Positions 18,081 through 59,587 of a stretch of 64,000 nucleotides of DNA are shown piece after piece. The position numbers and the translations under genes are program-made. Every line of letters starts with the position of its first letter. Position 1 is the stretch's first letter. Below the pieces are notes generated by a model. It did not search any database and was not told the DNA's origin. It worked only from the letters and a program-made list of their open reading frames with translations. This stretch comes from Octopus vulgaris (Eukaryota): positions 95,728,001 through 95,792,000 of the forward strand of contig OX597818.1 in NCBI GenBank assembly GCA_951406725.2, given 5' to 3'.

Positions 18081-18381
18081 TATGGGTAGAGAACATCACA
18101 AACAGTAAACAACATGAAATACGAAAACAAATCAGTTGAATACGCAAACAACGAGAGAAACAAATGGAAAACAGAACAAGTAACATAAAGAACAACCCTA
18201 CATCAGTTGTTGGCTGCCTAATGCTCGAAATGAGGAGTGGATAAACAGCCTACAACTGATGAAGGATCATTCTTTATGTTACTTGTCCCGTTTTCCATTT
18301 GTTTCTCTCGTTGTGTGCATATTCGACTCATTTGTTTTCATATTTCATATTGTTTACTGTTTGTGATGTACTCTACCCATA
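18081..18381. repeat. Fold-back element (arms about 136 bp, loop about 30 nt) in a (TA)n context
   Basis: 18081-18216 is the reverse complement of 18246-18381 with scattered substitutions. Confidence 0.9.
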
Positions 18382-18449: not shown

Positions 18450-18501
<52 letters not shown>

Positions 18502-18562
18502 ATCCAAACAAGAAAATACAGAAAAAAACACAGCAACGCGAGGACGTGGAACAATTAAAGTA

Positions 18563-18631
18563 TTATTTGACGCTCAGGAAAGAAGGGAAGGAGGGTTTAA
18601 CGTTTCGAGTGGAGCTCTTCGTCGGAAACAA
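18563..18631 (-). ncRNA. Type I hammerhead ribozyme motif (Penelope pLTR type)
   Basis: Minus strand UUGUUU-CCGACGA-A-GAG-CUCCA-CUC-GAA-ACGUU-[pyrimidine-rich loop]-AGCGU-C-AAAUAA. Stem I 6 bp, stem II 3 bp, stem III 5 bp, GUC triplet. Core has U4C and one extra A. Confidence 0.7.
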
Positions 18632-19094
18632 GGAGAAGGAAAGATCCCAAGAAGGGAAGACAGAGGAAAAAAAATATTTTTGCTGGTGGTGCTCAAGAGA
18701 TCACATATATATAATTTCTTTACTGCCCACAATGGGCTAAACATAGAGGGGACAAACAAGGACAGACAAAGGGATTAAGGCTAAATCTAAGTCTAGAGGG
18801 TTCATAAATCTCAGTTATGTCATCGATTCCTATTCTTTCATTATTTACTTAGCTTCAGGATTAATAGATTTGAGAACATCTTTGTTTATTATTTTGTGTT
18901 TTTTGGTATTTAGAAAAGTATGAAGAATCAACATTAGAAATCTTTTTGGAAACCACTCCAATTAAAGGACAAATCCACATTCAACCTGTTACACACGGAT
19001 ATGTGTGCATATGTATGTATGCGTATATATATATGTGCATATGTATATATAAGTGTTATAATATCCTAACATATATTATTATTACTATTATTAA

Positions 19095-38267: not shown

Positions 38268-38837
38268 GTAAGCTAATCTACTTTTAGTTTGTAATGTTTG
38301 TCTGGTGTTAGCTAGATAGGTATGCAAATTTATCATTTCATCATTTGCCATCTAACTTACTTTTGACTGATTACTAAGTTAGCCTTTCTAATTTATTTAG
38401 ATTGGTTATTGTCATCTTGTTACATATGCTTATACCAAAACCTATCTTTTGTCTGGCTACCATCCCATGTTCATTCCATTCACTTTTAGCTGAAAGCCAT
38501 TACAAAGATCCACTATACCTCATGTCACCTAATACATGGACCACTACAAAGGTTCACTATCTGTGCATCAATACAATAAAGTACAGATTGATCTGTACTT
38601 TATTACAGATGAACCACCATTTAATGCAACCAGTCAAAGTATATTGATTGGAGTATAATGAGAGAGACCTGGGCTTTCATTGTTAGCTTAATCAAACTGA
38701 TTAAGTGTATTTATGCCTATATGTCTTCTGCAAGAATTTTTCTTTGTGACAAATTACAGTAAGTAGCCTTCTTACAGGTCCAAATATACTCAAGCATATT
38801 TGAACTGGTAACAAGTTTATATCAATACAATAATGAA

Positions 38838-39114
38838 TGTATCATACAGATAAGAAAGTAATATTTTGAATGTAGTATAGTTGTGAAAACAGCAGAAAGG
38901 TTGGGTATTTTACATTTATATGACAGAAAAAGTTGTCAGCAGACAGCCGCAGGATTCAAACCCACACCTCTTAGATACCAGCTGAGTGCTCTACCATTAA
39001 GCTAAACTGCCTGTTGACAACTTTTTTAGTCATATAAGAGTAAAATATCCAATCTTTCTGCTGTTTCCACAGCTATACTGTATTTGAAATATTACTTTCT
39101 TGTCTTACGATACA
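38838..39114. repeat. Fold-back element with about 100-bp arms enclosing a tRNA-like core
   Basis: 38838-38940 is the reverse complement of about 39013-39114 with scattered mismatches; 15-bp direct repeat CAATAATGAATGTAT at 38828-38842 and 39168-39182. Confidence 0.9.
38941..39011 (-). pseudogene. tRNA-like cloverleaf, anticodon GGT (Thr), probably non-functional
   Basis: GGCAGTT-TA-GCTT-AATGGTA-GAGC-A-CTCAG-CTGGTAT-CTAAG-AGGT-GTGGG-TTTGAAT-CCTGC-GGCTGTC-T. All four stems form, with one C-A mismatch, several G-U pairs and TTC changed to TTT in the T-loop. Confidence 0.75.
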
Positions 39115-39289
39115 CATTTGACGCTTCCAAAAACAAACAAAAAGATGTTTGTTTACATATGTTGTTGCAATAATGAATGTATTGGTTTTTAAAGCTGGTT
39201 GTTCAGGTTTCTAGATGCCTTGTTTAAGAGTACAACACAATAGCTCTAAAAGTGTTGTAATTTGTTTGAAGCATTGCAGTATGTATAAA

Positions 39290-46126: not shown

Positions 46127-46498
46127 CTAAACTTTCTCACCAGTTTCTGTTTCTGATTTTTCACTAGACTGATTACAATCATTCTGTATTTCAGTACAGT
46201 TAGATCTATTAATGTTTGACTTGTCCTTAGAATTAGCACTTAGTTCATTTTTAGAGTCAGATTTAGCAAGAGTGCTGGCATGAATGATATCAGTGTCAGG
46301 TGTGCTCTCTGTTAGAGCTGTAGCATTTGGTTGTTCTTCTGTGGTTTCACATTGATTTGCAGCCAGACGTTGCAGTGCTTTGGCTGTCTCCTGTAGATTG
46401 TACTTGCGGAACTTGTAGAAATCTTTCACAACACTTAGGCAGCAAAATCCTTTCAGGAACTCTACAATGACAATAAAGTCTGGTGCACTGTAGTTAAC
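46127..46498 (-). CDS. THUMPD1: THUMP domain-containing protein 1, coding exon 3
   Basis: TTTTTACAG| acceptor, phase 0; VNYSAPDFIVIVEFLKGFCCLSVVKDFYKFRKYNLQE is the conserved THUMPD1/Tan1 C-terminal motif; acidic tail and TAG. Confidence 0.93.
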   Translation of the reverse strand, partial: VNYSAPDFIVIVEFLKGFCCLSVVKDFYKFRKYNLQETAKALQRLAANQCETTEEQPNATALTESTPDTDIIHASTLAKSDSKNELSANSKDKSNINRSNCTEIQNDCNQSSEKSETETGEKV

Positions 46499-47419
46499 CT
46501 GTAAAAAACAAGTAAGACATTTCATAAGATCATCAACAGTAGGCTGTTATTTTTTTTTTTTATGTACAAGTGGTTGATCAATGATCTTTTGGTCTGAAAC
46601 TACAGTTATTCCCCAAAACACCTAATTGAGTTAGTCTGACTTGGTAAGAGGTTCTTGTGTTATGAAAGATTTACAAAACATAAAGTTTTGAGATGTGAAT
46701 ATAAACTTATTTAACCATATGACTTCTAGAGAATTATGGCTGCTTCACATTATTCTTCATGTAGTATTAATTTCAATATACAAGAAATTATACATGTGTT
46801 AGGCGCATGATTCTCAGAATCCATATTATCATCATCATTTAACATCCATTATCTATGCTACTGGCAAAGCGTCACACCAAGTTACATAGTCTGTTTTGGC
46901 ATGGTTTCTACAACTGGATGCCCTTCCTAATACCAGCCACTTTAGAGAGTGTACTGGGTGTTTTTTACATGGTACCATTACTATATATATATATTTGTGT
47001 TAGTGTTTCCTTATCTTAACACCTCGTGATAGTTGTAAATGAGAGTGAACATTATAAAATTGATGCCATTCATTTACAATCGTCCATGAAAAACAGGCCT
47101 TGCCATGAGGGAAATATTACCTTACTTAGAAATAATGAAGGGCATCTGACCATAGAAAACCTGCCTGACTCATGAAATAGTGGACATTAAGATGATGAGT
47201 GATGTGACCTACTTTAAAACTGAAGAAAGCAAAGGAATGTGGAAGATAACAATGGCTGCTGTAATGTTTAAATTTTAGTTCTGCAAATCTTAATCAGCAG
47301 CATGGCATCTGGTATAAATCAACAATTATCAAGACTATAATTATCATCCTATAATAATTTTTTTTTTTACTGGTTTGGTCTACTGGAAGGGATTGCGCTA
47401 ATGGCTCTCATAGGTCTTC

Positions 47420-47960
47420 CAATGATGTAGCTAATGCTCTTTTTGGATAATTGCAAGAAAAACATAAGCAGGGAGAGAATTCCACAGGGTTGATGTTCTG
47501 GAGAGAAAGGACCTTGAGAGTTATACACAGTATAGAGGAAAGACAAGTAAGTTCACGTGAGTGTGATTCATGAAAGTGGTGAAAGAGCCACTACAAGTGA
47601 GGAGCAGGTGTTTCAGTAATAGAAGGGCAAAGACAGAGTGAGATGCCAGCATGTCTGCAAGCCAAAGGTTGATATCTGCCAATGAGTGATATCATATCAA
47701 TCAGTTAGATGGCCTTTTTATTGGATGTTTGCAGCTGTTCCAAGAAAAATGATAGCAGTGGTGTTGGTGCATGAAAAGGTAGTAAGGGATTGAGCAACAT
47801 GAGAACATGAGCAAGAAGAGGTATTCAAAAATAATGTTTTTTGTAGTAAAGAAATGGGTATTTCATTTGATGTTAATAGTACAAAGAATACACTACAGAT
47901 TCTGGAGGGAGAGCTTGATAAGTCAACTCCAGTAAGGTGAGGAAATATACAAAAATGATA
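47420..47960 (-). mobile_element. CR1/Jockey-like LINE 3' relic in a THUMPD1 intron
   Basis: Minus strand FLSRTSTLWNSLP; a related fragment at about 53330-53620 reads AVSPFCFFYQYFYYNGLCSLEL. Confidence 0.6.
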
Positions 47961-48707
47961 TAAAGTTAACATATGGAAACATCATTTCTAAAGTGCATCA
48001 TTACTAGATTTTAAAGGCATCCACAACAAAATTAAACTTAAAAACATCATCAATAAACTCAGTTTAAGATTATCACAGATATATCAGATGTTTTTAACAC
48101 TTAAGAACATCTGATTCATCTGTGATAGTCTTGAACTATAAACCTGGTTTTAAAGGTATGACAAATAGGTGCAGGCTTGGCTGTGTGGTAAGAAGTTTGC
48201 TTCCCAACCACATGGTTCTAGGTTCAATCCCACTGCATGGCATCTTGGACAAGTATCTTCTACAATAGCCTCAGGGCATTGAAAGCCTTGTGGGGATTTG
48301 GTAGAGAGAAAGAAGCCTGTTGTATATACGTATCTGTGTGTGTATTTGGTTCTTGACATTTTGTGATAGTTGTAAACGAGTGTCACTGTTGTAGAAGGAG
48401 TGCCATTCATTTCTAAATCTGGAAAAACATATATGGCCTTAGGAAAATATTACCTTGCTTGGAAGGTGAGGGTTGATGATAGGAGAGGCATCCAGCTGAA
48501 GAAAATCTGCATCAATAAACTGTCAAACCCACACAAGTATAGCAAAGTGAATATTAAAATGGTGATGGTAATGAAGAACAAACTAACAAACCAAATTTTC
48601 AAGGTAATAAGCAAACCAAGTTTTGAAACATGATAAACAGAATTTTAAACGTGTGTTCAAACTAAATTGTAAAACATTAACGCAACAGATTTATATACAT
48701 CACCAAC

Positions 48708-49184
48708 CTTATTCAAGGGATTCATCTCTTCAATAATCTGACAGATATTCCGAATTACATCATCACGGGACACTCTAGCTGACATACGAGCCTTAAATGA
48801 AATGCCATATGTTGTTGTTGTTCCAAAAGGTGTGGAGAAATATGAATCCAGGAGATCCGTGGCCACCTTTGTGATCTCTGCCAAATCGATACGACAAATG
48901 GTACTCACTGGAAGGACACGAAGACTATAGCGTGTCTTTTGGACTTGACTTTGGTAAATATCACCGAGAATGTGATGAATTAATTCACATGGCTTCTCTA
49001 GGGTAGTCTTGATGAATAGACAGTTCTTTGTGCCACTGTCCACCTGCTGGAACCGCCGTTCAGCAGGTTTTTCCTCTTTCAAGGCTTTCACTTCTCGTTC
49101 AAGTTCATCTTCAATCTCACCAGCTGATTCTTCTGAATCTTCTTTGTCATCATTAGATTCCAAATTCTTTGATGTCACCTCTGT
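48708..49184 (-). CDS. THUMPD1: THUMP domain-containing protein 1, coding exon 2
   Basis: ATTTAG| acceptor, AAG|GTTGGT donor, 477 nt phase 0-0; IEDELEREV..LK...RRFQQVDSGTKNCLFIKT...KTRYSLRVLPV. Confidence 0.95.
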
Positions 49185-49278
49185 CTAAATCAGATAAAAT
49201 ATCAGAAAAACAAAATAAAGTCATTTTAATTTCTTAAATATGGTGGGAAGGGGAGGAATGTCAGTCAACTAAACAGAC

Positions 49279-49436
49279 CAGTAGTTTCCAACCTGGGGTC
49301 TGTGGACTCCTGGTGGTCCATGAACAAAATTAAAAATTTCATACACACACACACACACACACATATACATAAGGATAAGCATATTAAAAGGGGTCAGTGG
49401 GAAAACTCAATTAAATAAAAGGGTTGGAAACCACTG
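49279..49436. mobile_element. hAT MITE
   Basis: TIR CAGTAGTTTCCAACC / GGTTGGAAACCACTG; 8-bp TSD AAACAGAC / GAACAGAC (one mismatch). Confidence 0.85.
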
Positions 49437-50957
49437 GAACAGACCTGAGTACATAACTGGTGCCTTACTTAATCAACACCAGAGAGATGTTGAATTCAGT
49501 GGGATTTGAATTGAGAATGTAAAAAGCAGTCTGACAAATGATGTAATGATTCTGCCTTTTAAAAGATGTTTCTGATTTCAAGAGGTGGGGAAGGATAAGT
49601 TGATACCATCAACCTTAGTACATATTTATTTTAATGATCTCAGAAAGATGAAAAGCTAAGTTGATCTCAGCACAAGCAGACATGAGATCTTCATTCCACT
49701 CCATTCAGCAACAATCAGCTGGAATTACTTTAGCATTTAAACCGGCCATATCTGGTCAAAATATTCTACCTGTTTTATGTTCAACCAGGTCAAATCTGGC
49801 CCCTCACATCTATCCTACAATGTCATTCTAAAAATAAACTACCATGTCATCAGAATCTAGAAGCTACAAGATAATTCATGATTAATTTGAAACAATGTGA
49901 ATAAATAAATATTACATTTAGCAGAATAATCTCAACAGTGCCTTAAATGTTGAAAGCATTCAATGATATCCACAAAAAAGGTAAAAAAAAATCAAAATCA
50001 AAAAGAAAATGATTTCCACTTTAGTTTTACTGTGTAGCACCTTGGGTATGCATTCTGTTATGGCCCCAGACCAACCAAAGCCTTATGAGTGAATCTGATA
50101 GACAAAAACTAAGCAGAAACCCTGTATGTGTGTGTTTACATTTGTGCTCTATGAAAGTCACCAACTACAAGCAGAGTTCTTGGCGTTGCTTCATTTCTCC
50201 AACCAGCAAATAGTTTGCTCACTTTTGCAGGGGTATGAAATAAGGGATACTTGTGAAACAGGTAAGGGGTAGCATCAAGAAGAGTATCTAGCTGTAAAAC
50301 AATGCTTCAGTAACATATTCATCTACCCCATGCTAATATGGATAAACAAAAGTCCAAACATGGTCAAATACCCACTAACTGGCTCATGCTGGTGGCACAT
50401 AAAAAGCACTATCTGAACATGATTGATGCCAGGCCTGCTTGACTGGTTCCTGTGCCAGTGGCATGTAAAAGCACCCACTACACTCTTGGAGTGGTTGGCA
50501 TTAGGAAGGGCATCCAGCTGTAGAAACATTGCCAGATAAGATTGGAGGCTGGTGCAGCCGATGGCTCTCCAGACCTCAGTCAAACTGTCCAACCCATGCC
50601 AGCATGGAAAATGAACGTTAAACGGTGATGATAATGATGACCAAAAGGACCTCAAAATAATAGGAAGTGTTACTATGGACTATATTGAGTTCAGTATTTT
50701 ACTAGTATTTATTTTATTGACCCTGAAAGGATGAAAGTCATCAAACCTTGCACAAGGATTGAAATATGAAGAGAGGGCTAGATATTACATCGATCCCAAT
50801 GCTCAACTGATACTTATTTTATTGATACTCAAAAAGATGAAAGGCAAAGTTGACCTTGGTGACATTTGAATTCAGAATGCAAAGTATTTTCTCCAGCACA
50901 GTAATGATTCTACCAGTCTGTCGCCTTACAAAAGATACTATTAATAAACAAACTCAC

Positions 50958-51167
50958 ATGCTCAGGTCCATATAATATATCGGCGTATTCATTGAGAAGA
51001 TTATACATTTCCTTAACAGCTTGACTTTCATTGCGATTACATGTCACCAGAAAACCTCGCATCCCAACATCTATGGAGTTCCATTTCTTACGTTTCTTAT
51101 ACATACATTTCTTATAATAGGTACGTGATCTCTTGCAGCCACTCTTTGGTCCATCATTGCCTCCCAT
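50958..51167 (-). CDS. THUMPD1: THUMP domain-containing protein 1 (NAT10 adaptor for tRNA ac4C), coding exon 1
   Basis: GMRGFLVTCNRNESQAVKEMYNLLNEYADILYGPE motif; donor CAT|GTGAGT. An acceptor at 51185-51186 implies upstream 5'UTR exon(s), with a candidate donor GG|GTAAGT at 51833. Three exons give 352 aa. Confidence 0.95.
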
Positions 51168-54100
51168 TCTGATGTTTATGCAACCTGTAACATAATGAAA
51201 CTGAACAATTAAAGTGGTTCACTCACATAACTGTTGATTAATACTTTTGGAGTAAAGGTAGGTCTTTGAATAGAGATAGATTATTGGAAAAATGTAAAGT
51301 AGGGGTTGGGTTCTTAGTAGAGGTAAGTTTTTGGTGTACAGGTAACAATAGGTATTTCAAGCAGATGTAGGCTTTGGATATAAATACATTCTTTGGGATG
51401 GTTAAGAAGTTTGTTTCTCAGCAACATGGTTTTGGGTTCAGTTTTGGATAAGTGTTTTCTACTATAGTCCCAGGCCGACTAAAGCTTTGTGAGTGCATTT
51501 GGTAGACGGAAACTTATAGAAGTTTGTCGTATGTATATGTGAATGTGTGAGTGTGTATATTTGTGTCTCTTTGTCTTGTCATAACATGATATCTATACAT
51601 GAGTGGCATTGTCATACAGAGTTATTCGTTCCTATTCATATTTTAACTGAATGCCCGAGTAACGAATAACATCATCAAATGCTGACTGATAGCGACAGTA
51701 ACGTTACAACGAAACTCTATATTAAATGCAATAACCAAAATAACTGTGGACCTAAGACATAAAACTTGGCAACTTGAGAATGAAACTGAGTGGTGGAAGC
51801 ATTACAATCAAAAGGCTTCCTTCAGTAACTTACCCAGGATGCAACTGGAACCATGAACTAAGTCAGTAGAAGAGGGGCTAGTATCGCGCATATAACATTT
51901 TGCAGGACCTACCCCTCCCAAAAGGCAGTTTAAACGATTTAATATGCTTAACATGAAGGCCTAAAGAGAAAGTATATTTAAAATCGTCATTTTCAAAAGA
52001 CATTTACTACCCAACCAAACTTTCAGTGTAGTTTTTTTGTTGAGACCCATATCACCTTAGATCGAGCAAACCTACGATCAAATGAGTTCCAGTTGTGACC
52101 ATTTCGTCTTTCCGCATTTCAGAGATTAGATTGTCTAATATATCCTTCATTTATGACGGTAGGGTGTGATGAGGAGATATGTCTATCATTTTTAACAGGC
52201 TGAGCGACTGCGTAGACATTCCTTTGTTATTTTGCCGCCTTTATAATAGAGAGCAGGGTTTATATATATATATAGTGTTGTATTGATGTAGCGAATATAT
52301 ATTCTCGTTTATTAAAATTACGGGACACTTTTGTATTTGTGGGTGGAGGACTGTAAGTTAGGGAGTTGGAATACTATGGTATTAGCAACCTAACTGAAAG
52401 CACAATTGAGGAACCAAAACCAGCACGTGTAGGAAGTACTGAATACCTTGTAAACTGGCTAGAGCATAGTATATTACTGAGACAAACATTAACAATCCAC
52501 AATTGAGGGATGGAACCAAAGGATAAAGACTAGCGAAATTTCAAAAGCTCAATAATAATAGAATAAGCTAGTTACATAGTTACCGGTTAATATTTATACA
52601 TGTGTCAGCTATTAGTTAATAGATCAGTTAACATACTTGTGCCGGTTGTTATAAATATAGTTATACATACCTTCCGTTTTATATATATATGTATATATTC
52701 GAAACAACAGAAATTCAACGATATGCAGAAATAAACAAGAACAACACGAAAGAACACGTGGTGCGTTTGTTTGTAAATTGTCAGTAATCTCCCTTGATAT
52801 TTTAATTATCTCCCTTGTCAACTTACTGCTTCAAAGCTAAAACGACTTCCTAAACGTCAAATCTGTATACTCTTTACTCTTTTACTTGTTTCAGTCATTT
52901 GACTGCGGCCATGCTGAAGCACCGCCTTTAGTCAAGCAAATCGACCCCAGGTCTTATTCTTTGTAAGCCTAGTACTTATTCTATCGGTTTCTTTTGCCTA
53001 ACCGCTATGTTACGGGGACGTAAACACACCAGCATCGGTTGTCAAGCGATGTTGGGAGGACAAACACAGACACACAAACAGATACACACGTATACATATA
53101 TACGACGGGCTTCTTTCAGTTTCCCTCTACCAAATTCACTCACAAGGCTTTTGTTGGCCCTAGGCTATAGTAGAAGACACTTGTCCAAAGTATCACACTG
53201 TGGGAATGAACCCGGAACCATGTGGTTGGTAAGCAAGCTACTTACTACACAGCCATTCCTGCACCTATGTTTGAATTATTTTACTTATTGAGTCAGGGTG
53301 GTGGTTCCTATGCCTTCAACTTCTCCTAAATCAGTGAAACTGATGTTTTTGAAAGTCAACATTTGTTGGAAAGATGTGAAGTAACAGAGGTCCAACATTC
53401 TTCAGAGAAAGGACGGGATGAAGTCATTAGAGCAGGAGCTAAGGGAGGTGGCAGTGGTGCAGGACATTGCAGAGTAATGGGAAGAGAGATGAGTTGGAAT
53501 ACCAGCCTGGAGGTAGCTTGATTTTAACTAGCTCTAAGGAGCAAAGGCCATTATAGTAGAAGTATTGATAGAAAAAGCAGAAGGGGGAGACTGCACACTT
53601 GTGGACTAGAAGTAGGAGTTCGTTTATGTATGCATGCATATATGTGTATCAGTGCACATATGTATGCTGCTACTGCTCCTGCTACTAATGATGATGATGA
53701 TCACCTCCACCACCCACACATATTATTCTTTAGCCCTTAATCTTTGGTTTTGATGCAATAGAAAATGTATACCCCTACTTGGATGATATCTGGATTTTAT
53801 TACAGATACATTGTTGAATAGTTTTATCATGACCACCTTAGCCTCATAGTAGAAATAGGCATTATGAAGTTTCTTTTTATATAAAAGTGCCCCAATCTTA
53901 TGGATCAGATTGTTTCCTTTTTCTCTTACTGGGTCCTTAAATTCTTTTTTAAATTTTAATATTTTAATAGATAAATTTTGCTAAGTTAAGATGCCCCCCA
54001 CCCATATTCCTAATTCCCACACTTAGATCTCAATGTGATCTCCTTTGTTCTCCATTTTAAGCCCCTTTTAGTTGATAATCATAATATGTTAAGCCACCCC

Positions 54101-55140: not shown

Positions 55141-58100
55141 GTTAGTTAGTTAGTTAGTTAATTTGGCTCAAAAGCAAATAGCAAGGCCATGTAGGGGGAC
55201 ATGGAGTTAAGTACAGGGTGGTGTTCATGTAAAGAGTTCAGGCCACTTGAGGTCAAGGGAGGCTTTGAACAAAGCGGTTGTCGGCATCTTCACCATCTCG
55301 TCTGGCAGCTTGTTCCACGGATCCGCAACCCGGACGGAGAAAGCTCCTCTCCTTCGATTGAGATGAAATCGTCGCAGGTAGAGCTTTTCGGAATGACCCC
55401 GCAGCCGACGCTCTGGAGCAGGAGTGAAGAACAGCTCTTTCGAGAGGTTACACTTTCCGCTTATGATGTTGTGGGCGAGAATGAGATCACCACGGCGGCG
55501 GCGTTTTCAAGAGAATAAAGGTCGAGCGTCCTCAGCCTTTCTTCGTAGGACAAATTTTTGAGACCATGAACCATGCGGGTAGCCAGCTTCTGGACTCTTT
55601 CGAGATGCTGTATGTCTTTGAGGAGATAAGGAGAAGAGGCTTGAATCCCATACTCCAATATGGGTCTCACCAGCGTGACATAGAGTGGTAGGAATATGGC
55701 TGCTGCGAGCATTCCGAATGACCGTCGAATCAAGAACAGAATTCCGCGTGCTTTGTTGGCAGCATGGATGCACTGGGCCGAAGGCGAAAAGGAGGAATCC
55801 ACCAAGATACCTAGGTCCTTTACCTGATCGGTCCTCTCCAGCAGCAGACGACCCGGCTCGAAATCAAGTTGAGTTGCAGGAGTAGAGCCGACAGGCAGAT
55901 GACAGCACTTTGACACGTTCAGACACAGGTCCCAATTGTTAGACCACTTCCAAATTTGGTGGAGGCATCGACGAAGATCCTCTATATTACCGCGAGGAGC
56001 GACCAGTTTGATATCGTCGGCAAATAGAAGGGTGTGTTGCGTGAGATCGTCGGGCAAGTCATTTATGAAGACTAAGAACAACAAGGGCCCAAGCACTGAA
56101 CCTTGAGGCACGCCACTGCTCGCACTGGAGACGTCGGACCGCGAACCATTAACTTGGACTTGGAAGAAGCGATCTGAGAGGAAGGCACCAACCCATCGTA
56201 CAATATCCGGATGGAAACTATATGCTTGAAGCTTGACAAGCAATAGGCGGTGGTTTACCGAGTCAAAAGCTTTGGCAAAGTCTAGTAAAACGATGTCAAC
56301 AGCATCACTATCATCGAGGATGCGCGTCACCAATTCTTCCATTACTAGTAGGTTGGTCAAGCATGATCTCTTCGGCACGAAGCCGTGTTGGGAATCAGAG
56401 ATAGAGGCTGTGTTTAGGAGGTGGAGCATCATACTTTTCTTAAGGATGGTTTCGAACATCTTGCTGATAATTGATGTAAGGGAAACCGGTCGGTAGTTAA
56501 GCGGGTCTTCGCGGCTCCCTTTCTTGAAAATTGGGCAGATTATCGCTGTTCTCCAGTCTGCAGGTATAACACCCGTCGCCAATGACATATTGAATAGTCG
56601 TGTTAAGGGCTCGCAGATGACCGGAGCCAACGCTTTGATAACCCGTGGGTGTATGCCGTCAGGGCCGTGACCTTTGTTGACATCGAGGCCTTGAATAACA
56701 CGTTTGACTTCGTCCCGCGTGATGACCAATCGAAGCATTGGAGGTACCGATCTATCAAATGGAGGGGGTTCACGACCATCATCTTGTTTGAAAATAGTTG
56801 AAAAAGCCTCGGCAAATAATTGACTCTGTTGATAAGGGTCCTCAATCGATACACCTGTTGAGTCTACCAACGTTGCAATCTGGTTGTTCAAGCGGGAATT
56901 CCGCTGGACATGGGCAAAGAAGGTTTTTGGATTGCTACTGGCATTTGCCACGATTTTGTATTCGTAACTGAAGCGTTCTTTCTTTTCAATTTTCATGGCT
57001 CGGTCTCGTTGAGTTTTGTACACCTCAAAAGCTGCAGTCGAATCCAGATTTTTGAATTCAGCCCAAGCAATATCTCTGAGTCAACGTTCTCGTTTAACCT
57101 TCTTCGTCACCCAGGGCTTGTGTTTCTTCCTCTTAGGAAGCCCAACGGGAACTGCCTGGTCAGTCAAACAGATTACATATGCTTTGAGGGATGACCATAG
57201 TTCGTCAACTGAGGACAACGTCATCAGGGATCGCCAGTCCAGAAGCGCGGAAGCCTCGGTTAGAATTTCAAGATTAATTGCAGAGAAGACTCTACGTGGC
57301 AGCAAAGTAGTTGTGGGCGTAGAAAAAGTTGTGTGCATGACGAACTTCAGGACCGCATGATCACTCTTGGCAAGAGGGGCGCACACAGATACGTCTGACA
57401 CTGATCTTGGATAGCGGGAGAATACCAGATCTAGCATAGATGGCTGCTGCCCAGACCGATGCCTTGTCGGATATTCAACATGTTGCGATAGAAAACAATC
57501 TTCAGCCACGTCAAGAAGGGCCTGGCCGAACCGGGAAGATGTTGTACAAATTGATGCGGGCCAATTGATCGTGGGAGCGTTGAAGTCTCCTAGTACCAAA
57601 CAGTCATGCGAAGCTGAAACGAATCTTATCGCTTCGAGTAGATGAGCATCGTCCTGGAGGTCGGCAAGAGGCGGCCTGTAGACAGCCAACACGGGCAGGC
57701 AAAATTCAGATAGGCTCAGCTTGCAATAGATGGCATCGAATTTTGTTGTAGGCTGAGCATTAGTGGGTAGAATACCGCTGGACGGTTTGTGCTCAGACTT
57801 AACATACACAGCAACACCTCCACCTCGCCTTTTTCCTCTGTCACATCTGAAAAGGACGTAGCCCTGCAGGTGGATTTCTGAGTCCTTTACTGCTGGAGTC
57901 AGCCAAGTCTCGGTGATAGCTATCACATCAGGGGAGTCACGTATGGCCAGTGTAAATAGTTTACTGAACTTTAGGAATAAGGAGCACGAGTTGGTGTAGA
58001 CGATGCTGAGCTCTGAAGTCTGAGGGGCGGGAGTTGGGGAGCAAGCAGAATAAGGGGTATCAGTGATAGCATCGTTGACGGGGGTATCAACTTCACTTCG

Positions 58101-58148
58101 ATTTGCCCTCACATCACTTTCCCTGTCAGCACTACAGCATGGGACCAT
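55141..58148 (-). mobile_element. CR1-clade LINE, 5'-truncated, near-intact ORF2 (APE endonuclease plus RT) with (TAAC)n tail
   Basis: APE motifs ITETWL, YRPP, GDFN, SDH; RT motifs NYRPVSLTS, QHGF, DFAKAFD, GVPQGSVLGP, FADD; CR1-like LSYEERL..L.L.SLE.RR.RGDLI. One in-frame TGA at 57081-57083, one frameshift at about 55504-55507, natural stop at 55225-55227. Confidence 0.95.
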
Positions 58149-58382
58149 GACAGGCTTCTTTCAGTTTCTGTGTGCCAAATCCACTTGCATGGCTTTGGTC
58201 AACCTGGACCTATCATAGGTACCATATAGTGAGACTGAACCTAAGAACATATGGTGAGGAAGCAAGCTTCTCAACCATGCTTGCACCTATAAAATAATTT
58301 ATATTTATACAGCATTTATATTTATTCATATCATTTATGTTTATATTTCGTAATTACACTATATATTTTAAATCGACAAACC

Positions 58383-59050
58383 ATGAAGGTATCCTATGCC
58401 AACTCTGCTAATTTAGAGCAGCTTATGCACTGCATAAACAATAGCAAAATGCGGCAAAGGTTCAATAACTCACCTACTGGATCTAGCGAACATTTGCATC
58501 TAAACACCAACCAAGGAGATGTAAACTGCATTGATAAACACCAACTACGACCAATTTGTAATAGTAGAAATACTTATGATACAGCTAGCACGGTAACAAC
58601 ACCGGTAAATGGAGTTGGGACTGCCTTATATACAAATAAATACAATAAATGCTCATGCAGAGAAAAATCAAAATGTCCTTTGATGAATCTTTGTATGAGT
58701 ACAAATCTTGTATATAAATGTACCATGCACACAAGAGGAGGGCCCTATGTTTACATTGGGCAGACGGCTGATTCATTTAAGAATTGCTATTGTAACAATG
58801 TTGCCAGCTTTAAGACAATCAATAAGAGATATTCAACATCTTTGGCAGATTTTGTATGGTGACTGAAGGAAGTTAAAACGAAGTACAACATTAAGGTATG
58901 CAAAACTATACAATATAATTTCCAGGAGATGCCGCCTTCTGCTCCGAGGAATCCCTGTCTATTCTGTGGACCAACGAGAAGATAATTAATAAAATTTCTG
59001 AATAACTCGACATGTCTACATGCATATAAATGTACTTTCGCACAATGCAT
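58383..59050 (+). mobile_element. Penelope-like (Naiad-like) GIY-YIG endonuclease relic
   Basis: KVSY..., Cys cluster CSCREKSKCPLMNLC, LVYKC...YVYIGQTADSFK...STSLADFVW*LK. Confidence 0.85.
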
Positions 59051-59587
59051 TGAGAATGAATTTTGAGTAACTGTTAACTTAATTTACATTAAAGTATGGA
59101 TGACTTAAGTTTACTTTCAACCCCTCCATTTTTATAAACACCAAGTAGATAACTCACTCACTTTGTGATCGTGAGAGCATCAAACCTCATGTGTGCATAT
59201 GCTCAAATATTTGCTGATGCTTGTATGAGCGAGTGGTATTTGAGCCATGAAGTTTATACATCTATATACATCCATATCTGTTAAGGGTTATTTTTAATAC
59301 TTTTCTCTCCAGCTTGCTTGTTCATTTCTCTTTTTGCCATCTGTGATTTTATTTTTGATCTTCTATGTAAATGAAGATATTTCCTCCATCGGGCTGTGCT
59401 TCTCTCTACAAAATGGAAAGTTACATTGTGGAACAGTCATTTTAACAAGTTGTATTTATTTATCATCCGACAAGATACATCTGCACCACCAGATGCTCTT
59501 GAACAAAAGATGCAGCCTAGTTCAGGAATCAAACTCACTACCTAAAGATTGTGAGCCTGATGCTCTAACCACTAAGCCATGTGCTTT

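Follow-up and report, generated by a model that had tools for sequence, protein, structure and literature searches.

What kind of element places a complete tRNA cloverleaf at the tip of a long hairpin? The question is raised by a locus in a 64,000-nt stretch of the Octopus vulgaris genome (contig OX597818.1, positions 95,728,001 to 95,792,000), which was analysed as a whole and is referred to here as the window. An earlier note on this DNA had proposed an unusual non-autonomous element that fits neither the SINEs nor the MITEs. We find that the hairpin is a single decayed copy of a dispersed, protein-less repeat. This repeat is a non-coding family, the circularly permuted monomer of which measures 280-285 nt and has a tRNA-like head, whereas a hammerhead could not be detected. 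The reverse transcriptase (RT) of Penelope-like elements (PLEs) probably copied it, from what is likely a ring or multimer RNA.

The window copy

The features of the window copy and its surroundings are listed in Table 1. The 71-nt minus-strand cloverleaf with anticodon GGT reported earlier was recovered by two programs, since it scores 48.6 bits against the Rfam tRNA model (gathering score 29) and is called Thr(GGT) by ARAGORN. Inverted arms of about 100 bp are likewise present (38848-38946 and 39007-39105; 99 nt, 85% complementary), but they are not a fixed part of the element and represent two partial monomers joined head to head, one with a short (S, 38838) and one with a long (L, 39169) outer end. 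The exact 15-bp bounding repeat, the left copy of which overlaps the arm end by 5 nt, was confirmed, and it has no third occurrence in the window. What had been described as a 53-nt asymmetric extension does lie on one side only, and is in fact the tail between the S and L ends. The whole unit folds with -139 kcal/mol (z -13), and 0 of 100 shuffles were equally stable.

The insertion is flanked by two plus-strand reading frames that resemble exons of a coiled-coil gene, and it is therefore probably intronic. A stretch of 34 nt immediately left of the insertion (38789-38822) matches, in public contigs, a different repeat that is abundant; an older repeat may thus have been the landing site of the element. 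In a search for the empty site in relatives, the contigs from three runs broke within the repeat and none spanned the insertion site.

Table 1. Features of the window copy, other features of the window, and sites of a related word in Hydra-like loci
Feature	Position	Strand	Remarks
Left 15-nt target-site duplication	38828..38842	+	last 5 nt are a microhomology overlap with the S end
Arm 1	38838..39021	-	10 last leader nt, tRNA-like head, trailer and body to fixed end S (monomer position 174); 90% identity to family majority
tRNA-like cloverleaf	38941..39011	-	monomer 1-71; not a decoding tRNA
A box of head	about 38994-39004	-	
B box of head	about 38951-38961	-	
Trailer strand of 21-pair acceptor-stem extension	38920..38940	-	
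T5 run in trailer	38927-38931	-	10 nt past cloverleaf
Fold-back junction	39007..39021		15 nt common to both arms, within the self-complementary acceptor-stem extension
Arm 2, inverted and 5'-truncated	39007..39169	+	monomer 66-233, to long fixed end L; 88% identity to family majority
Tail between S and L ends ('asymmetric extension')	39110..39169	+	monomer about 175-233; one arm only
Right 15-nt target-site duplication	39168..39182	+	2 nt shared with L end
Second core-like word	about 18256-18262	+	
(TA)n run	18456-18497		adjoins the hammerhead-bearing repeat end
End of a different PLE-type repeat	18498-18700	-	has a minimal hammerhead of type I, with its core at 18619-18625 (U4 changed to C) and a cut predicted near 18598
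Exons of a THUMP-domain gene	46127-51218	-	product likely a factor for tRNA modification; no relation to the insertion was found
LINE ORF2 remnant	55461-58160	-	endonuclease and RT domains
Hydra-like PLE fragment	58293-59550		GIY-YIG region
Hydra-like 19-mer sites	L214:2805-2823, L229:2577-2596, L234:165-183, L240:2541-2559		opposite polarity to the subfamily B head

A dispersed family with two subfamilies

The genome searched comprises 2.8 billion bases. A search with the window stretch gave 942 first-look candidates, 40 of which were scored. Altogether, three DNA searches yielded 89 loci that correspond to 59 distinct places, 30 being discarded as repeats of a place. A sister subfamily, B, was reached via a loose end in public contigs and contributed 28 places (1 duplicate and 2 matches to an unrelated repeat were left out), and two internal-motif searches that were blind to the ends added 40 places (4 duplicates dropped, 4 further matches left out). 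The mapped sample of subfamilies A and B thus comprises 127 places with 227 arms. The monomer measures 285 nt in A and 280 nt in B, and 218 of 297 columns are identical between them.

An exact motif with 34 matches in the genome was present in 2 of 139 sampled arms, which by scaling gives about 2,400 arms; this figure is rough and probably too low, because the sample favours well-kept copies. The copy number is therefore roughly in the thousands. Copies of the A set have a median identity of 85% to their majority sequence, which indicates that the family is old. A pattern built from the read loose end had 0 matches in the genome, and four runs guessed to be RNA gave only diverged family fragments, in contigs that are unable to show a ring.

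Arms of a circularly permuted monomer

The unit is a circularly permuted monomer, in which the tRNA-like head is followed by body, tail, linker and again the head. In many copies the tRNA is preceded not by an inverted arm but by the native linker, which runs upstream into the end of the body, and 56 arms pass from tail or linker into the tRNA head. Arms longer than one monomer are not rare (32 of 227, the longest of 466 nt); none of the 227 reaches two full monomers, and a single arm, at L051, has two complete heads.

In 71 of 76 adjacent pairs the arms lie head to head with their 3' ends outward, and the 3' ends of 168 of the 227 arms fall into two zones (monomer 155-183, short; 215-245, long) that together span 60 of 285 monomer positions. 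The same was seen for 46 of 65 3' ends at loci from the end-blind motif searches. Where both ends of a unit are fixed, a short end is paired with a long one in 36 of 38 cases (p-value of 2.7e-9 against 50:50), and in 8 of 9 cases in the end-blind motif set. A further 33 head-to-head pairs have at least one end outside the zones. The tail is the stretch of about 60 nt between the two fixed outer ends and is found on one arm only. The inner breakpoints vary among copies, and the two termini fall at distinct sites. The long hairpin is a scar of the insertion, made by two 5'-truncated arms. At one place (L006:1501-2052) two near-identical arms lie tail to tail across a TA run, representing a later duplication, and at another (L011:1501-1837) a fold-back within the cloverleaf leads to tRNA calls on both strands.

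Taken alone, the window copy resembles terminal inverted repeats around a well-scoring cloverleaf, and could be read as a MITE or fold-back DNA transposon with a captured tRNA, or as a functional gene for tRNA-Thr(GGT) that happens to lie in a hairpin. A MITE is contradicted by the variable inner breakpoints, the two different terminal sites and the variable length of the duplications, and a tRNA-Thr gene by the heads, of which only 7 of 16 in A and 1 of 24 in B have GGT, position 33 being a decayed CpG. Unless there is a transposase with matching ends, the architecture of the family refutes this explanation, and we give it almost no credence.

The 5' ends of the arms peak at monomer 60-69, at the acceptor helix, through which a polymerase would be passing there (26 of 109 at risk, and 9 of 30 in the motif set), although fold-back homology and one search query may contribute to this peak. 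No sharp 5'-end peak was found in the mapped arms at position 1 or 72, where RNase P and RNase Z would produce ends. An RT stop of the m1A58 type was considered and rejected, as only 6 of 168 5' ends lie at positions 56-58 and the main peak is at 60-69. Among the 63 arms that attain the start of the head, 52 extend more than 10 nt further upstream. Transcripts therefore appear not to begin at the head, which argues that the family is not a SINE.

One alternative is a tRNA-derived SINE, transcribed by RNA polymerase (Pol) III and copied by a LINE, with inversions due to twin priming. The A and B boxes are intact in both subfamilies, the duplications are of variable length (12-17 nt), and head-to-head inversions are a known product of twin priming. 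However, besides the upstream extension of the head-reaching arms, a SINE is difficult to reconcile with an internal T5 terminator 10 nt after the head, with two fixed 3' ends of which a short one is strictly paired with a long one, and with the absence of an encoded tail. We regard the SINE reading as largely refuted and accord it a very small residual probability. The view of the earlier note that this is a non-autonomous element, neither SINE nor MITE, is upheld, and the element is multi-copy. The same note had named Penelope or LINE machinery as the possible driver. Back-to-back copies with two fixed ends make it likely that the family was spread by a Penelope-type enzyme; a LINE fits poorly.

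Target sites, flanks and a possible PLE partner

Microsatellites adjoin 41 of 88 fixed ends in the subfamily A set, compared to 119 of 1180 random spots. Duplications of at least 10 nt flank 6 of 38 units, compared to 15 of 400 mismatched controls, and a stricter count gave 4 of 40 units compared to 2 of 150 controls; the other 32 of the 38 units have no duplication of this length. Where duplications are present, they measure 12-17 nt. Target duplications of the kind noted earlier, of about 15 bp, therefore exist and vary in length, but they belong to a minority of the copies.

It is also conceivable that a protein-coding PLE with a tRNA-derived promoter in its terminal repeat gave rise to the copies, as pseudo-LTR ends that broke off, since the insertion geometry is the same as that of PLEs. 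Beyond the long end, however, the arms either stop or run into the linker and the next head (the 56 arms mentioned above). The shared sequences inspected among 302 flanks are abundant interspersed repeats and microsatellites, joined at varied monomer positions, with no single continuation. Furthermore, seven PLE protein fragments match at only 2 of the 127 loci, each more than 650 nt from the nearest arm, and no PLE open reading frame (ORF) joined to an arm was found among the 127 loci. We therefore consider the pseudo-LTR explanation improbable.

The genome contains many remnants of GIY-YIG PLEs. The queries of our partner search were the Pfam GIY-YIG domain and the Hydra-like fragment of the window. 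No homology to the monomer was found in 30 GIY-YIG loci and 30 Hydra-like loci, which represent few families.

Several observations were made on these PLE loci in their own right. The Hydra-like fragment, which has 11,005 first-look candidates in the genome, is shared by the window and loci L211-L240. Two of these relatives, L217 and L232, conform to a hammerhead whose stem II measures 77 nt. A terminal 19-mer of Hydra-like loci (Table 1) is antisense to the D arm of the head in subfamily B, agreeing at 18 of 19 bases; a shared history may have left this trace, or it may reflect chance on a word that resembles an A box. Among the sequences in supplement part 52 of PMC8557442, a single 14-nt word like the second body hairpin, which is a weak match, lies at most 30 nt from the 3' end of a Hydra element. 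This element is from another animal, and its entry directly precedes that of Hydra-1_Obim (PMC8557442). Lastly, L096, L101 and others share a 781-aa open frame that includes the GIY-YIG match, with identical scores, which suggests a young PLE family; downstream of this frame are short tandem repeats with CCAAT/CRE-like words.

A tRNA-like head on an extended acceptor stem

The head is a tRNA mimic and not a decoding tRNA. The identity Thr-GGT that had been read from the window copy did not hold for the family, as the anticodon GGT, which is rarely used by eukaryotes, is found in 8 of 40 heads. In local alignments with the fetched host tRNAs the head scores best with Lys(TTT) (73), followed by Cys (69) and Thr(AGT) (61). 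An origin from tRNA-Lys is tentatively suggested by these scores, as the fetched tRNAs do not cover all isotypes. Positions 33-34 read CG, TG or CA in both subfamilies; the ancestral head therefore likely had C33, and U33 looks like a product of CpG decay. The anticodon arm drifts and has an insertion of 1-2 nt in subfamily B. By comparison, 14 of 16 positions of the D arm and 15 of 17 of the T arm are kept between A and B, and the acceptor likewise.

The 7 pairs of the acceptor stem extend into 21 leader-trailer pairs, and the resulting helix of 28 pairs, which is continuous at -1 with an A-U or G-U pair, is kept in both subfamilies. The leader-trailer duplex has a predicted stability of -30 kcal/mol, compared to -0.6 to -8.7 for 30 host tRNA-like loci. 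(One locus, L125, has a tRNA-Cys gene with at least 7 other tRNA-like matches inside 3 kb.) Among 37 pairs with 16 changed columns between A and B, 34 are paired in both, compared to 26.6 under random change (p-value of 0.00035), in a test that rests on two subfamily majorities which are themselves the source of the structure; one of the three double changes is CpG-type. In 40 natural copies, two-sided change was seen in 58 cells, the shuffled value being 40; counted by pairs, however, such change (17) did not exceed the level in shuffles (14.8). With just two lineages, the evidence that compensatory change maintains the extended helix is suggestive, not strong. Covariation, which had been named as a check on the structure, is thus seen to some extent in the stem (34 of 37 pairs kept), and the anticodon drifts.

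Both subfamily majorities have a T5 run 10 nt past the head, a feature also seen in the tRNA genes of the host, and 44 of 89 trailers have at least 5 T. Several body hairpins are predicted in both majorities; RNAalifold applied to the bodies of decayed copies gave 2 pairs and no consensus structure. As copies of the family are called tRNA-Thr(GGT) by ARAGORN and exceed the Rfam threshold, they can inflate tRNA annotations.

Search for a hammerhead

Hammerhead descriptors, which covered short forms, stem II of up to 220 nt and four core variants, fitted 0 of 227 arms and neither majority. As controls, the descriptors recovered the hammerhead at 18.6 kb in the window, for which the descriptor had been relaxed so as to recover it, as well as a U3-A8 variant and variants in which stem II measures 77 nt; a fit was also obtained for 3 of 30 Hydra-like loci. 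Moreover, 20 loci gave 153 Rfam matches, and the 150 of these that were listed include no ribozyme family.

These results bear on the alternative of a retrozyme with an undescribed ribozyme or a relic hammerhead in its body, to which the tRNA would be incidental. Size, tandem monomer and insertion shape are indeed like those of animal retrozymes, in so far as these are described in PMC7229834, and several body hairpins are predicted in both majorities. In addition, a core-like heptamer is found at monomer 73-75, and the only sense GAAA follows 72 nt later, recalling hammerheads with a long stem II; the two may be a hammerhead relic. However, neither stem I nor stem II is closed, and the heptamer is buried in the acceptor extension. 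Together with the negative descriptor and Rfam results, this makes a hidden ribozyme very unlikely.

The earlier note had also pointed to a 10-mer, AGCGTCAAAT, as being shared with the hammerhead repeat. It does occur twice (39116-39125 and 18565-18574; 0.09 expected by chance, for a word chosen post hoc out of many possible ones), but at 18.6 kb it is about 24 nt downstream of the predicted cut and not around it. Since the family majority has G in place of the first A of AAAT in the window copy, and since the word faces opposite ways in the two elements with respect to their 3' ends, a meaningful link to the hammerhead was rejected as a probable coincidence.

How copies may be made

PLE insertions are marked by partial tandems, by a 5'-truncated copy in inverted orientation and by a bias for (TA)n, and one end alone has a tail, which measures 30-40 bp, according to the parts of PMC8557442 consulted. 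A PLE protein cuts and extends both target strands in vitro, and the tail is delimited by two internal sites at which RT starts (PMC11167929, in the portions considered). If, by analogy, this mechanism is carried over to the tRNA-headed family, the PLE protein would bind the body hairpins, and its GIY-YIG nuclease would cut AT-rich DNA on both strands, at positions separated by a few bases. Each cut end would then prime cDNA synthesis at one of the two internal start sites, and both cDNAs would move back along the RNA, often stalling at the entry of the acceptor helix. Joining of the stalled cDNAs by short homology would give a hairpin with a one-sided tail. In the window copy, one arm would have traversed the head and the other not, which would explain why the tip is formed by the tRNA. 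The simplest template would be a ring or long multimer, although the lack of any arm of two full monomers counts against a ring. The tail of about 60 nt, compared to 30-40 nt in print, speaks against the PLE reading, as do the absence of a partner from the 60 PLE loci sampled and the 32 of 38 units that have no duplication of at least 10 nt.

What the head contributes is less clear, and three roles were considered. It is quite possible, though short of probable, that the head acts at the RNA level as a tRNA mimic, with host tRNA enzymes cutting, closing or stabilising the ring in place of a ribozyme. With a ring or multimer as the simplest template, this processing role is favoured by the finding that retrozyme rings are closed in vitro by the tRNA ligase RtcB, as far as this is covered in PMC7229834. 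Against it stand the continuity of the helix at -1 and the lack of a sharp 5'-end peak at 1 or 72. [quoted passage not shown] The cut would thus need to lie elsewhere, speculatively in the anticodon arm. A second role, which is possible but doubtful, is that of a passenger, with an unrecognised body motif or plain Pol II read-through doing the work. The third, which we deem rather unlikely, is that of a leaky Pol III promoter, which the helix may shield from RNase P and Z. The internal Pol III promoter that had been suggested cannot alone account for the intermediate, as the T5 run after the head and the arms that continue upstream imply that a plain Pol III transcript cannot explain the copies; nor do 5' ends pile up at the head.

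Comparison with known systems

Why PLEs carry hammerheads is still an open question, and non-coding passengers of PLEs in animals are known mainly as hammerhead retrozymes, judging from the consulted parts of PMC8557442 and PMC11167929. A passenger with thousands of copies, the full PLE signature, a conserved tRNA mimic and no hammerhead indicates that the ribozyme can be dispensable for a passenger, and it offers a 285-nt substrate for asking whether the ribozyme step serves to make ends, to make a ring, or nothing. A tentative and somewhat unlikely extension is that the family is a ribozyme-free counterpart of the retrozymes, namely an RNA ring parasitic on PLEs, in which host enzymes for tRNA processing and ligation are recruited by a tRNA mimic with a stem of 28 pairs and make the circle, which a PLE RT then copies round from two fixed starts.

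Helenus TRIMs (Kojima 2024) reportedly have two LTRs, a PBS and PPT, and duplications of 4-5 bp, none of which was seen in the octopus family. What both have in common is a tRNA-derived stretch in a non-autonomous retroelement that is not a SINE, in so far as Helenus is described in the text of PMC10886601 that we consulted. The schistosome elements Sm-alpha and Sj-alpha resemble the family as high-copy, tRNA-related retroposons with an unusual RNA module, but they have a hammerhead, and PLE-type ends are not mentioned in the consulted part of PMC2770079; in the octopus family, by contrast, the head is internal to the copied RNA. MALAT1 mascRNA is likewise a tRNA mimic inside a longer RNA, with an acceptor extended by conserved leader-trailer pairing. 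Its extension has 7 pairs and a bulged -1 base that is needed for RNase P, whereas that of the octopus family is continuous and has 21 pairs (PMC8457004, consulted in part).

Endonuclease-bearing PLEs, including Poseidon PAc of Anolis (PMC11167929) and Naiad, Hydra and Chlamys MRC1 (PMC8557442), share with the family the partial tandems, the inverted 5'-truncated copy, the two internal starts, the one-ended tail and the AT-rich or (TA)n targets, as far as the consulted portions of these papers describe them. Naiads and most Chlamys elements have no hammerheads there, some Chlamys elements are non-autonomous with head-to-tail copies, and old Naiad remnants are reported from cephalopods including the octopus (PMC8557442, in part). 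The family differs in having no ORF, a longer tail, and a contiguous circular permutation with a tRNA-like head, and no sequence link between the monomer and a named PLE was found in the loci and supplement words compared.

In the literature searched, which included few subscription journals, no tRNA-bearing PLE passenger without a hammerhead was found described in a title or the beginning of an abstract. Hundreds of unclassified families are part of the octopus repeat annotation in the consulted section of PMC13282606, and the family may already be among them; it may also be present in Dfam or Repbase as unclassified or as a SINE.

Among the closest known systems are the non-LTR retrozymes of animals. 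These, too, are dispersed, non-coding tandem monomers in the range of 170-400 nt, with a proposed dependence on PLEs and a proposed circle closed by a tRNA ligase (PMC7229834; 10.64898/2026.07.22.740005; both as consulted in part). In contrast to the octopus family, in which none was found, each retrozyme unit is defined by a type I hammerhead, and a tRNA cloverleaf on a long stem is not described in the consulted parts of either source. In its workings the family thus resembles PLE passengers of the retrozyme type, although by the tests applied it is not a hammerhead element, a SINE, a MITE or a tRNA gene.
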